From: a virus
Lineage: Duplodnaviria > Caudoviricetes
Virus record (IMG/VR): IMGVR_UViG_3300015360_000023
Coordinates: 64,001-128,000 of that record
Reading direction: 5' to 3' (one strand)
DNA: 64,000 nucleotides
The notes under the pieces were generated by a model that did not search any database, had not been told where the DNA came from, and saw only the letters and a list, made by a program, of their open reading frames with translations. The translations under genes were made by a program, and so were the position numbers. Shown piece by piece: positions 45,747 through 49,102 of the stretch; positions within the stretch are counted from its first letter, which is position 1, and every line of letters begins with the position of its first letter.

Positions 45747-46457
45747 ATGAGTAAGATATTAAGTATTGTTATTCCAGTTTTCAATAAGTGGAACTTCACC
45801 AAGTCTTGTTTGACTGATTTAGTTCAATTACCTGAAGATCATGAAATCATTGTTATCGACAATGCTAGTGCAGATGATACTCCAACCAAGATTCAAGGGC
45901 TAATTGACGAGCTATTCCTCAAATACCCATTGAGCTGCGAAATCCGTTACGTGAGAAACGAAGAGAATACTTTTCATTCTAAAGCCTGTAATCAGGGCTT
46001 TCGTTTAGCTCAGGGCGATAACGTTCTATTTCTCAATAATGACATTCGAGTTAAAGCCAGCCATACAACGTGGACCAAGCCAATCATCGATGGTTGCGCT
46101 AATGGAATCGTAGGTCCAACGATGGGTCAGCTTGACAGCAATCTAAACTTCGTCAAAGAAGCCAGCCAGCAATTGACCGGCAACTCTTATTTGGGCGGTT
46201 GGTGTATTGCGGCCAGCAAGACCACTTGGAAAGAGCTTGACGTAGATGGTACGGGCCAGATTTGGAACGAAGAGTTTCCATTTTACTTCAATGATACAGA
46301 CTTGAGCTTTCGCGCTCGTCTTAATAGGGTTCCATTAACTGTAGTTAACGTTCCTGACGTAACTCATTTTGGTAAAGTTTCCGCAGCACAAATTAACATT
46401 CACAAATTGTATACTGAGGGAAGATCAATCTTCCTTAAAAACTGGAGTAAGCGATAA
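45747..46457 (+). CDS. glycosyltransferase family 2
   Basis: LSIVIPVFN, IIVIDNASAD, ACNQG, VLFLNND, YFNDTDLSFR. Confidence 0.9.
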   Translation: MSKILSIVIPVFNKWNFTKSCLTDLVQLPEDHEIIVIDNASADDTPTKIQGLIDELFLKYPLSCEIRYVRNEENTFHSKACNQGFRLAQGDNVLFLNNDIRVKASHTTWTKPIIDGCANGIVGPTMGQLDSNLNFVKEASQQLTGNSYLGGWCIAASKTTWKELDVDGTGQIWNEEFPFYFNDTDLSFRARLNRVPLTVVNVPDVTHFGKVSAAQINIHKLYTEGRSIFLKNWSKR

Positions 46458-47281
46458 TGCCTGAAGGCGTAGAAGTAAGAATCAGTGCAGAGTTAATTAA
46501 ACCACTAGTAATAGGTAAGCAAGTTTCAATTTCATTACCACATGGAGCTGGAAGGTACAAATCATCTCCCCCTGAAGGATACGTTGCTTTTGAAAAATCA
46601 GTAATTACTGAATATGTAAAAGTAGTTGATGTTCAAACTAAAGGTAAATTCATGTATTGGTCATTTGATAATGGCTGGTATATGTTTTGTACTTTTGGAA
46701 TGACAGGGCAGTGGTCACCTATTATGGCCAAGCACCCTTGCTTCGTTTTTACTTTTGAAGATAACACTCAGGCCTTCTTTAATGATCCAAGACATTTTGG
46801 CACAATCAAATTTATTAACAATCGAGATGAGTTACTGCTTAAGCTAAATGAATTAGGCTGGGATCCTTTGAATCAAGAGCTAACTCCCGTATGGCAGAAT
46901 TTCGTTATCAATACGCTGGCGCGCACGACCAAACCAATTGGTCAGGTACTGATGGACCAAGGCGTTTTTGCTGGCGTAGGTAACTACATTCGTGCGGAAG
47001 CGTTATATCTAGCAAAGATGTCTCCTTGGTGTAATAGTAATAAGTTAAAGAAAGACGAAATTGCTATTTTATGTCAGGCGCTTGTTGATGTAATGAAAGA
47101 TTCGTATAATCATCAAGGAGCTACTATCCTTACCTATAAAGATGCCTATGGGGCAGAAGGTAAGTACTCAAGCTGTTTTAAGGTTTATGGCCAAAAGACA
47201 GACCCTTTGGGTAATCCAATTATCAAAGAAGAGACGCCCGATAAGCGCACTATTCATTGGTGCCCCGCAGTACAAGTATAA
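46457..47281 (+). CDS. Fpg/Nei family DNA glycosylase/AP lyase, zincless-finger type
   Basis: N-terminal (M)PEG-EV, KGKF, H2TH motif LMDQ..FAGVGNYIRAEALY. The C-terminus RTIHWCPAVQ lacks the four-Cys zinc finger. Confidence 0.92.
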   Translation: MPEGVEVRISAELIKPLVIGKQVSISLPHGAGRYKSSPPEGYVAFEKSVITEYVKVVDVQTKGKFMYWSFDNGWYMFCTFGMTGQWSPIMAKHPCFVFTFEDNTQAFFNDPRHFGTIKFINNRDELLLKLNELGWDPLNQELTPVWQNFVINTLARTTKPIGQVLMDQGVFAGVGNYIRAEALYLAKMSPWCNSNKLKKDEIAILCQALVDVMKDSYNHQGATILTYKDAYGAEGKYSSCFKVYGQKTDPLGNPIIKEETPDKRTIHWCPAVQV

Positions 47282-47289
47282 AGGTCATT

Positions 47290-48264
47290 ATGTCATTATC
47301 TACAAAAATTCTAATTTGGTTAGGCGGTATTCTTCTGGTTGGTGCTTTAGGTTTCATTATCTATACACAGATTCAAATATCTAAACGACAAGAAGCTATT
47401 GAGCAAAATGTAGTGGCTCAAAAACTATTGGTGGATGGCATTGTTCGAAGTCAGTCTACCTGGGCCACAAGAGATGATGTAGAGAAGTTTATCAAAGACA
47501 ATGGACTAAACCTCAAAGCAATCCAAGAAGACCTAGATAAGCTTCACGCTGAGGTCTCCTCAATCAATGTAGCGATTGCTAGTAGCAAAGGGCAAATCGG
47601 CACGCACATTCCAACGACTCCTGGTCCAGTAATTAATCCTGGGCCTATTGATCCAAAGAATCCAGATCCATATGGATACATGAAGCGTCAACAAACGTTT
47701 GTCCTAAATGAAGATTTTGGTTCCATTAAGATTCCAATTGGGTCAGTCGGATTTAGTGCGTGGCAGAAGGAACCTTGGAATTATGATATCAAGGCTAGAG
47801 ATTATAAACTAGCTACTGTAGTAGGAACTGACGAAAATCAAAGACAATATTTCTATAATAAGTTTACTGTTCAAACAGATGGTAAAGAATATGTAGTTCC
47901 GATCAAAACTGCAACTACAGAACAGGTATTCCCTGAGGCTAAGTTTAGCTGGTGGAACCCAAGACTATTCCTTGGCGTAGATGGTGCAGTTGGGCTCGCC
48001 CCTGTCAAAGGGGAGTTCACACCAAATCTAGGTGTTCAAATTATGTCTTATGGTCGATATAAGACTCAGCCAGATCTTTCTGTTTTGCAAGTGGGTGCAG
48101 GCTATGGTACTATTAGTAAAACGCCGCAACTTGTTATAACGCCCATATCATATAATATTGGTAAACATTTACCACTCATGAATAACACATATATTGGACC
48201 CTCTCTCGGCGTAGGTACTGACGGTAACGTCTTTATTGGCGCCGGCTTGAGAGTTGGATTATAA
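47290..48264 (+). CDS. N-terminally membrane-anchored protein with coiled coil and beta-rich C-terminus (spanin candidate)
   Basis: TM segment ILIWLGGILLVGALGFIIY, a coiled coil, and alternating Gly/hydrophobic strands to the C-terminus. Start at 47290 follows AAGG. Confidence 0.55.
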   Translation: MSLSTKILIWLGGILLVGALGFIIYTQIQISKRQEAIEQNVVAQKLLVDGIVRSQSTWATRDDVEKFIKDNGLNLKAIQEDLDKLHAEVSSINVAIASSKGQIGTHIPTTPGPVINPGPIDPKNPDPYGYMKRQQTFVLNEDFGSIKIPIGSVGFSAWQKEPWNYDIKARDYKLATVVGTDENQRQYFYNKFTVQTDGKEYVVPIKTATTEQVFPEAKFSWWNPRLFLGVDGAVGLAPVKGEFTPNLGVQIMSYGRYKTQPDLSVLQVGAGYGTISKTPQLVITPISYNIGKHLPLMNNTYIGPSLGVGTDGNVFIGAGLRVGL

Positions 48265-48274
48265 AGGAAGAATA

Positions 48275-49102
48275 ATGCTATATCTTTTGACACTTACCTG
48301 GAATGCGTGCGACAAGTTAACCAAACTCAAGGAATCAATTCTTCCTGCCCTTAATGGTATTGATTACACTTGGCTCATCAAGGATAATGCATCCAAAGAT
48401 GATACTGTTGCCGTTGCTTCAAGTTGGGGCGGTAACATAAAGGTTATCCCTTATAAGAACAACATGCAAAACTTTTCAGCGGGTATGAACTACCTCTTTA
48501 ATGAGGCGCAACCTAAAGATAATGATCGTGTTCTTTTATTGAACAATGATGTTATTTTTAATGATAAAAAGTCAATTCATAATATGATGGGTATTATGGA
48601 TAAAGATAAAAAGGTAGGCGCAGTAGGCTGTAGGTTGCTATATACTGGCACTGATAAACTCCAACACGCAGGTGTCGTTTTTGATCCGAGAACTAGGACT
48701 CCAACCCATTTTAGGGTCGGCCAAAAGACTGATGCAATGGCAGAAAGAAACAGAGAGTTTCAGGTTGTAACTGGAGCTGTTCTTTTAACTGATGGTGAGA
48801 GTTTCAAGAATTCTTTTACCAAGAACAAATCGGGCGCTAATGGCATGGACGAAAATTATCACTGGGCCTTTGATGATGTTGATTTGTGTTTAGCCATTAA
48901 GTATAATCAGAACAAGAGAATTATATATTGTGGTGAGACTAATATCTTCCATGAAGAAAGTGCCTCTCTAAAGAAGAATCCAGCTAACAAGCTATTTATG
49001 AATCATAATATGTCCTATCTAATGGACAAGTGGGCTGGACGTTATCAAATTGATCTGGTCGATTACACTAAAGATCCAAAACTTAATTTGTACCAAGGAT
49101 AA
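48275..49102 (+). CDS. glycosyltransferase family 2 (WbbL/rhamnosyltransferase-like)
   Basis: DNASKD, NFSAGMN, LLLNND, VGAVGCRL, QHAG, VTGAVLL, DDVDLCL, HEESAS. An AAGGA SD favours ATG 48275. Confidence 0.9.
   Translation: MLYLLTLTWNACDKLTKLKESILPALNGIDYTWLIKDNASKDDTVAVASSWGGNIKVIPYKNNMQNFSAGMNYLFNEAQPKDNDRVLLLNNDVIFNDKKSIHNMMGIMDKDKKVGAVGCRLLYTGTDKLQHAGVVFDPRTRTPTHFRVGQKTDAMAERNREFQVVTGAVLLTDGESFKNSFTKNKSGANGMDENYHWAFDDVDLCLAIKYNQNKRIIYCGETNIFHEESASLKKNPANKLFMNHNMSYLMDKWAGRYQIDLVDYTKDPKLNLYQG

Follow-up and report, generated by a model that had tools for sequence, protein, structure and literature searches.

Locus and Features of the P0001 Gene

The window analyzed here was a stretch of 64,000 nucleotides (nt) corresponding to bases 64001-128000 of the 202,609-bp IMG/VR virus record IMGVR_UViG_3300015360_000023 (G000), the completeness of which was given by CheckV as 47%. 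The subject of the analysis was one gene of this window (designated X, a symbol that is also used for its homologues) and its product P0001, a protein of 324 amino acids (aa), for which the role of a single-component spanin had been put forward in an initial annotation made from the sequence. Two related records are named below, namely, the 481-kb IMGVR_UViG_3300028558_000791 (G001) and a 359-kb record (G002). The features recognized at the locus, in part predicted by modelling, were as follows:

47280..47284, + strand: weak Shine-Dalgarno-like AAAGG located 5 nt 5' of the ATG and overlapping the Fpg stop codon (TAA, 47279-47281)
47290..48264, + strand: whole coding sequence (CDS) of 324 aa (ATG at 47290, stop codon at 48262-48264), packed tightly between the upstream Fpg/Nei gene and the downstream GT2 (glycosyltransferase) gene
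47308..47364, + strand: predicted N-terminal signal-anchor transmembrane (TM) helix, residues 7-25, preceded by Lys6 and having neither a lipobox nor a conserved cleavage site
47365..47586, + strand: juxtamembrane helix (to residue 39) and small alpha/beta module (residues 40-99), in which R53 and D81 are conserved
TM helix, juxtamembrane helix and alpha/beta module together: region matching gp059 of Cellulophaga phage phi17:2 and, weakly, Rz-like PHROGs
47587..47679, + strand: Pro-rich segment, residues 100-130, modelled as ordered and extended and containing D126
47680..47949, + strand: beta domain, residues 131-220, the most conserved part of the protein, with near-invariant E141, P149, G151, F155, P162, W163, R170 and Y172
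47950..48261, + strand: predicted Gly-rich meander beta-barrel, residues 221-324, composed of six modelled strands and ending exactly in ...GAGLRVGL

The stop codon of the Fpg/Nei gene and the ATG of the P0001 gene were spaced by 8 nt, and no terminator-like site was found between the P0001 gene and its + strand neighbours. No nested + strand open reading frame (ORF) of at least 40 aa was present inside the gene, and no lipobox ORF was found nearby, the neighbours being Fpg and GT2. The surrounding genes encoded GT4, GT2, Fpg, a second GT2, an NAD-dependent sugar dehydratase/epimerase, a TubZ-like tubulin and a UvsW-like helicase. Farther upstream came the genes of the tail sheath and tape measure and giant baseplate/fibre genes, the baseplate genes being about 4 kb away.

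Distribution and Conservation of the Family

A total of 599 matches to P0001 were obtained in a word-indexed search, and an exhaustive HMMER search resolved the family into 449 clusters at 50% identity. The full-length aligned members were 313-356 aa long and could be aligned end to end. Relatives were located on phage contigs of 200-490 kb, and the corresponding ESM Atlas clusters were 83-100% viral. All family statistics reported below (those of the TM segment, the C-terminus, the strand composition and the PHROG matches) were computed on 135 aligned members. The near-invariant residues, D126 and the eight listed above for the beta domain, clustered in the middle of the protein.

The searches of annotated collections returned no Pfam family for P0001 at E <= 0.1, no PHROG match at E <= 0.01 and no usable match among PDB sequences. 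When 50,697 deposited phage records were searched by tblastn, nothing was found either for P0001 or for a 33%-identical homologue; megablast also gave nothing, and the same was true of a search for related loci that started from two distant members. The Pfam families DUF6549 and DUF6808, to which ESM Atlas and BFVD had led, showed no six-frame match at E <= 1 at the locus in G000-G003, and no hidden Markov model match of DUF6808 was detected in Cellulophaga phage phi17:2. Some homologues (e.g., P0066 and P0095) carried the JGI label 'PilE'. A type IV pilin was rejected, since the N-terminus (MSLSTKILIWLGG) had no Glu at +5 and the prepilin motif (a leader ending in Gly, then F/M-T-L-x-E) was absent from the family consensus. 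It was concluded that the P0001 gene is a conserved core gene in several clades of huge phages.

Membrane Anchor and Modelled Ectodomain

The only hydrophobic segment of P0001 comprised residues 7-25, with a Kyte-Doolittle 19-mer mean of up to 2.45, and the 19-mers exceeding the hydrophobicity threshold were confined to residues 1-32. Lys6 was positioned on the N side of this segment, a polar Gln-rich helix followed it, and the cytoplasmic tail consisted of 6 residues. P0001 contained no Cys and, hence, no lipobox. In the family, the hydrophobic stretch was 11-22 residues long (a median of 19) and its sequence was not conserved. Across the 135 members neither a conserved AxA/small-x-small cleavage site nor a conserved lipobox position was found, a chance lipobox-like tetrad being present in four of them. 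Judged by sequence, the hydrophobic stretch fits an uncleaved signal-anchor, and we infer that P0001 is a type II bitopic inner-membrane protein of N-in/C-out topology. The initial annotation had described a single uncleaved-looking N-terminal TM helix with no lipobox Cys and an arrangement opposite to that of the T1-type u-spanins. Both descriptions agreed with the present data, in view of the survey of the family and of the N-terminal anchor with its predicted N-in/C-out orientation.

An AlphaFold2 (AF2) model of P0001, built from the 135-sequence alignment, reached a pLDDT of 94.5 and a pTM of 0.80. Helices were limited to residues 3-39, 61-70 and 75-84, and the remainder of the protein was modelled as beta structure. 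The coiled coil of the initial annotation was not reproduced, as the TM helix stopped at residue 39 and was followed only by the two 10-residue helices of the alpha/beta module. A Pro-rich hinge had also been described; the Pro-rich stretch was indeed present (23% Pro in residues 101-135, with several Pro conserved), but it was modelled as ordered (pLDDT 77-93) rather than as a floppy hinge. When residues 30-223 were folded alone, the pLDDT was 93.8. No convincing fold was found for this part among solved structures (VIA-wide best Z of 5.2), and Foldseek against PDB gave nothing significant for either the whole model or residues 30-223. A profile search of PDB sequences returned only weak coiled-coil-like matches (E 0.04-0.09).

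C-Terminal Barrel

The C-terminal ~104 residues contained 16% Gly and displayed a strict alternation of hydrophobic and small residues, which was conserved in the family. The Gly-rich amphipathic strands had been placed from about nt 47950 in the initial annotation, and this position was confirmed as the codon of residue 221. In the monomer model, AF2 closed the region into a six-strand barrel with strands at residues 225-235, 241-255, 263-273, 278-289, 300-309 and 314-323.

The last residue occupied the same alignment position in all 135 members (L in 107, F in 22, M in 4 and I in 2), so a terminal Phe was present in only 16% of the family. The residues leading to it alternated as hydrophobic-x-hydrophobic-x-hydrophobic, with the pattern G-L-R-V-G-L. 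At the sequence level, this C-terminal pattern resembles the C-terminal beta-signal of outer-membrane proteins. The 30 strongly hydrophobic strand positions of the barrel were 0.1% charged. The other 40 strand positions contained 25% Gly and 12% charged residues, in contrast to 5% Gly and 29% charged residues at comparable positions of the middle domain, and these strand statistics lean away from an ordinary soluble surface. An assignment of the hydrophobic face to the inside of the barrel, made from side-chain volumes, was dropped because such rough volumes permit either orientation.

Small outer-membrane barrels (OmpX/OmpA/OmpW/NspA/PagL; Pfam OMP_b-brl) share with P0001 the Gly-rich hydrophobic/small alternation, strands of 10-15 residues and a hydrophobic last residue. 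They have, however, eight or more strands, a cleavable signal peptide and a terminal Phe, whereas six strands are predicted for P0001, no conserved cleavage site was found and the terminal residue of the family is mostly Leu. As modelled, the C-terminus of P0001 is a six-strand barrel rather than a classical outer-membrane barrel. Foldseek searches of viral models matched phage proteins named 'outer membrane protein beta-barrel' with a probability of 0.96-0.97 and E values of 0.03-0.08. Among the viral and ESM Atlas models together, phage and bacterial outer-membrane barrels ranked just behind the family itself, with weak scores.

Relation to a Cellulophaga Phage Protein and to Spanins

When predicted viral structures were searched with Foldseek, a family member was followed by a series of proteins of 195-263 aa that were matched with a probability of 1.0, and the members of this series with named hosts belonged to Bacteroidota phages. 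The probability-1.0 matches included a protein of Maribacter phage Colly_1 and the 'structural protein' R9ZZB8 of Cellulophaga phage phi17:2, the latter being matched over the whole chain with an E value of 2e-6. A protein of a crAss-like phage, named 'lysis regulatory protein-like', was matched with a probability of 0.97.

Based on its length of 238 aa and its label, R9ZZB8 was taken to be gp059 of phi17:2. The gp059 gene and the 3' end of gp060, the gene of an Amidase_3 endolysin, overlap by 11 nt, and gp062 (110 aa), a protein with a weak Rz-like match, is encoded two genes farther upstream. In gp059, an N-terminal TM helix is followed by a charged helix, a region rich in beta structure and Gly-rich strands at the C-terminus, the last residues being ...GGFKIEF, and the terminal Phe is near-invariant in the gp059 family. 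The comparison of the P0001 and gp059 families by hhalign gave a probability of 92.8% with an E value of 4e-7 over the N-terminal 76 columns (~78 aa), that is, over the TM helix, the helix after it and a common 'sK.dLe..iK..gI.L' helix. For two further phage proteins of the TM-plus-coil type, encoded in lysis regions, the value remained below 1%, and the match to gp059 is therefore not a generic one. No match was found between P0001 and phrog_38578, the family of phi4:1 gp57 and phi17:2 gp059. These comparisons point to a remote kinship of the N-terminal ~78 residues of P0001 and gp059, together with a likeness of the overall fold.

Both proteins have the TM helix, the polar helix, the common helix motif, the beta-rich region, the Gly-rich strands and a hydrophobic C-terminus. 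They differ in length (238 aa in gp059 and 324 aa in P0001), as gp059 has no Pro-rich stretch and lacks most of the middle domain. The C-terminal part of gp059 consists of about four strands and ends in Phe, whereas that of P0001 is modelled with six and ends in Leu. The two genes also differ in their surroundings, since the gp059 gene overlaps the endolysin gene whereas that of P0001 is flanked by Fpg and GT2. The host of the gp059 phage is a Bacteroidota species, whereas the P0001 phage uses Shine-Dalgarno sites heavily.

Twenty of the 135 family members matched phrog_739, 'Rz-like spanin', with the best E value of 3e-5, and other Rz-like PHROGs (phrog_214, 7584, 5151 and 13) were matched by fewer members. 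All of the matches that were checked lay within the first 50-85 residues. In a six-frame search of G002 with phrog_739, the best match was the P0001 homologue. P0001 and the lambda Rz-type i-spanins have in common an N-terminal TM helix, the N-in/C-out topology and a polar juxtamembrane helix, but P0001 is 2-3 times longer, has a beta-rich ectodomain and no long coiled coils. An embedded, overlapping or adjacent gene for a lipoprotein partner, as in two-component spanins, is absent as well. A coil is not predicted for more than 120 of the catalogued i-spanins (Kongari et al. 2018, PMC6139136). The T1 gp11-type u-spanins resemble P0001 in being a single chain with a beta-rich periplasmic part and a proposed contact with both membranes, and P0001 has no periplasmic Cys, the same as the 58 known u-spanins (PMC6139136). 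Their topology is nevertheless opposite, and P0001 has no lipobox, no C-terminal TM helix and no sequence similarity to them. Membership in the T1 u-spanin family was rejected on account of the missing lipobox and C-terminal TM helix, and membership in the Rz family on account of the missing coiled-coil domain and lipoprotein partner gene.

A protein of similar build was observed in an unrelated Cellulophaga podovirus, phi38:1. The gene of gp084 (L136:3102-3701) overlaps the endolysin 3' end, and its product is N-terminally anchored, beta-rich and ends in ...AWIGKTWKL; a TM-plus-coiled-coil protein, gp082 (L136:2084-2479), is encoded 5' of the endolysin. No homology was detected between gp084 and the P0001 family, the likeness being one of architecture and position only.

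Host

The putative diderm host, implied by the topology proposed in the initial annotation, is suggested mainly by P0001 itself. A distant homologue was found on a 383-kb contig binned with a Chitinophagales metagenome-assembled genome, and no tails of the type IX secretion system were found in the phage records. Shine-Dalgarno-like 4-mers preceded 39% of the crude starts in G000 and 34% in G001, the background being 7-8%, whereas the value for Cellulophaga phage phi17:2 was 3%; the control was L054+L055. In a 12.9-kb locus from the Chitinophagales-binned contig, one of nine starts was Shine-Dalgarno-like. Because Shine-Dalgarno sites are used so much more in G000 and G001 than in the Cellulophaga phage, the host of the P0001 phage is probably not a member of Bacteroidota, and the hosts of the phages that carry the P0001 family seem to differ in how they initiate translation.

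Proposed Role and Evidence against It

We proposed, tentatively and with somewhat less than even confidence, that P0001 is an inner-membrane-anchored envelope protein that acts in a spanin-like manner at lysis. P0001 would be tethered to the inner membrane with its barrel exported; once the wall is cut, the Gly-rich, charge-poor barrel would bind or enter the outer membrane, and its action would help to break or fuse this last barrier. As far as the models go, the barrel may be either membrane-embedded, alone or as an oligomer, or a soluble binding module. A more specific proposal is an inverted spanin, in which a helical anchor in the inner membrane and a mini-barrel in the outer membrane, of the BAM type and perhaps oligomeric, would staple both membranes of a diderm host. 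Such proteins would make up a third spanin class of huge phages, and its shorter relatives would be encoded in lysis cassettes of Bacteroidota phages; we consider this version unlikely.

The single-component spanin of the initial annotation was thus supported in part. The N-in/C-out topology, the predicted barrel, the position of gp059 in the usual slot of a spanin, overlapping an endolysin gene, and the weak Rz-like matches of about 20 of the 135 members (over their first 70-85 residues) were in favour of it, but the lack of a recognised endolysin neighbour in the contexts examined, the six strands and the compact ectodomain were not. Among phages that infect Gram-negative hosts, about 13% lack a recognisable spanin (Kongari et al. 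2018, PMC6139136).

Three groups of observations weighed against a spanin-like role. In the first place, the best VIA-align 2 match of residues 221-324 was 9xzt_A (Z of 9.3, root-mean-square deviation of 2.9 Å, 85 residues aligned of the 90-residue chain), whereas the eight-strand OmpW, OmpA, NspA and PagL and a designed transmembrane barrel scored just Z 5.1-5.7. The chain 9xzt_A is BBn6, a de novo soluble six-strand barrel, which shares its geometry with the P0001 barrel but has no sequence relation to it; the match is silent on which face of the P0001 barrel is hydrophobic. According to its authors, the six-strand barrel fold is rarely if ever sampled by nature (PMC12478100). Pfam outer-membrane-barrel models matched neither P0001 (E <= 0.1) nor appeared among the top families of the 135 members. 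To our knowledge, there is no natural six-strand membrane barrel, and we know of no precedent for an uncleaved anchor and an outer-membrane barrel in one chain. The compact ectodomain model also appears too short for a periplasm of ~20 nm. Since the predicted barrel has six strands and its best match is soluble, it is the sequence pattern that suggests insertion into the outer membrane. Of the outer-membrane barrel described initially, the closed barrel was therefore retained in the AF2 prediction, whereas its outer-membrane nature was called into question by the six strands, by the soluble design as the best match and by the Z scores of about 5 for outer-membrane proteins.

In the second place, the connection to lysis proteins was limited. 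No profile similarity was found by hhalign between the beta/C-terminal halves of the P0001 and gp059 families (~1%), and in GenBank gp059 is labelled 'structural protein ... similarity to phi4:1_gp57'. Within 3 kb of the endolysin of Maribacter phage Colly_1, no CDS of the size of the Foldseek match (230 aa) was found. The Rz-like PHROG matches were weak, and none was obtained for P0001 itself.

The third group concerned the genomic context, for which 79 loci of related phages (28-73% identity) were surveyed. The order GT4, GT2, (Fpg), X, (GT2), epimerase, TubZ was kept in about 65 of them, and the same gene order was found on the 383-kb contig with a homologue of 33% identity. Fpg (window 46457-47281) and the second GT2 (48275-49102) were often missing in related loci, X never; the genes kept with X in the sugar-gene block were GT4, the dehydratase/epimerase and, in the main clade, TubZ. 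About 10 of the 79 loci were found without any of these neighbours. In six of these (L117, L121, L125, L126, L127 and L133), a second clade, X adjoined IF-3, peptide deformylase-SEC-C and thioredoxin genes located ~1-4 kb downstream of X, which were recognized by ORF inspection, with Pfam confirming IF-3 and deformylase in L117 only. X is thus a core gene that, as in the ~10 loci without such neighbours, can also occur apart from the sugar genes. No recognised endolysin gene was found near X in the loci examined, and neither an Amidase_2 nor a Phage_lysozyme domain was found in four related records. The only domain of the peptidoglycan-hydrolase type found in the record belonged to an SLT protein ~94 kb off, in the head region. 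Lysis genes are scattered in large phages such as T4, and the absence of an endolysin neighbour thus weakens a role in lysis without excluding it.

Several additional features of the related loci and of the window were recorded. The SEC-C tail of the second-clade peptide deformylase is of the SecA type. LAGLIDADG inteins were located in the peptide deformylase-SEC-C fusion gene (L117:5040-6638) and in a UvsW-like helicase gene (L018:9639-12416). In the third clade, an ORF of 262-285 aa situated two genes upstream of X (L115:2455-3243, L120:3230-4087) might encode a wall hydrolase. The L115 ORF had a sub-threshold match to Pfam Glucosaminidase (E 2.6e-4, 22 bits versus a cut-off of 30), no confirmation of the glucosaminidase-like ORF was obtained in a PDB sequence search, and, among PDB sequences, the L120 ORF weakly resembled tail tubular protein A (E 5e-4). 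In the window, a 170-aa ORF with two predicted TM helices (805-1317, + strand), located directly 5' of a 1504-aa structural gene, may be holin-like and was among the very few membrane-protein candidates in this half-genome.

Outside the window, a switch from ~40% GC to 50-59% GC was observed at the same syntenic point in G000 (C1:190000-202609) and G001 (420000-480838). The flanks were collinear in the two records as far as the switch, and the GC-rich blocks shared almost no similarity; they may stem from a chimeric assembly or represent a variable island or an inserted element. Several lipoprotein genes were present in these blocks, including a Pro-rich o-spanin-like one (G001 434840-435172). 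The Pro-rich lipoprotein candidates of G001 were rejected as a lysis-cassette partner, because they are located in the GC-rich block of doubtful ownership.

Alternative Explanations

The main rival to a spanin-like role is a non-lytic periplasmic protein anchored in the inner membrane and carrying a soluble barrel, which we regard as rather doubtful. Such a protein would act in superinfection exclusion, as a T4 Sp-like block of wall penetration or DNA entry, or would bind a wall or glycan ligand through a patch of E141, W163, R170 and Y172. It would be in accordance with the soluble design as the best solved match of the barrel and with the middle domain being the most conserved part, the invariant acidic, Arg and aromatic residues of which are typical of a binding or catalytic site. 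The P0001 gene, moreover, lies outside any lysis cassette, in an operon shared with early/middle-type genes. However, superinfection exclusion genes are usually accessory and fast-changing, whereas P0001 is a core protein of fixed length that forms 449 clusters at 50% identity. A soluble barrel is also difficult to reconcile with its non-hydrophobic face, which is unusually rich in Gly and poor in charges for a surface exposed to solvent, and a non-lytic role with the endolysin-adjacent slot of the remote relative gp059.

It is improbable that P0001 is a lysis-timing protein, i.e., a single-TM holin or antiholin of the T4 T/RI kind with a large periplasmic sensor domain. One N-terminal TM helix joined to a large periplasmic globular part would agree with it, as would the name 'lysis regulatory protein-like' of the crAss-like Foldseek relative and a weak match of one family member to a holin PHROG (E 0.014). 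T4 T requires a cytoplasmic N-terminal domain of ~30 residues, whereas the cytoplasmic tail of P0001 has 6. The TM helix also lacks sequence conservation in the family, and the Pfam and PHROG searches revealed no homology to T or RI.

Just as improbable appears a virion-associated protein that would serve envelope penetration at infection. It is the annotation of gp059 as a structural protein and the position of the P0001 gene ~4 kb downstream of the baseplate genes that speak for it. The 'structural' label is of uncertain basis, though, and purified virions are often contaminated by membrane debris. By an established principle, a 19-residue signal-anchor should route the protein co-translationally to the membrane and, in this case, away from the cytoplasmic virion assembly; in addition, the second clade has X among translation-factor genes.

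A membrane partner of the adjacent glycosyltransferase/sugar-dehydratase cluster, e.g., in glycan export or attachment, is very improbable, for although the GT4-GT2-X-GT2-epimerase block is kept down to 28-33% identity, ~10 loci hold X without these neighbours, a cytoplasmic part of 6 residues cannot touch cytoplasmic glycosyltransferases, and no similarity to Wzx/Wzy/Wzz/GtrA-type proteins was found by Pfam. The loci with other neighbours already suggest that X accompanies the glycosyltransferase genes merely through common descent.

Implications

The large P0001 family, so far entirely without annotation, is strongly conserved, and its structure is predicted with confidence. A cultured, genetically approachable relative encoded beside an endolysin gene (phi4:1/phi17:2) makes the proposed spanin-like action testable. 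If the barrel does enter the outer membrane, the topology of P0001 would be new among membrane proteins and its mechanism of lysis new as well; should the barrel work there in monomeric form, it would represent a natural membrane barrel of six strands, with a fold so far not observed in membranes. If the barrel stays out of the membrane, P0001 would still be a core envelope protein of huge phages with a natural six-strand meander barrel.

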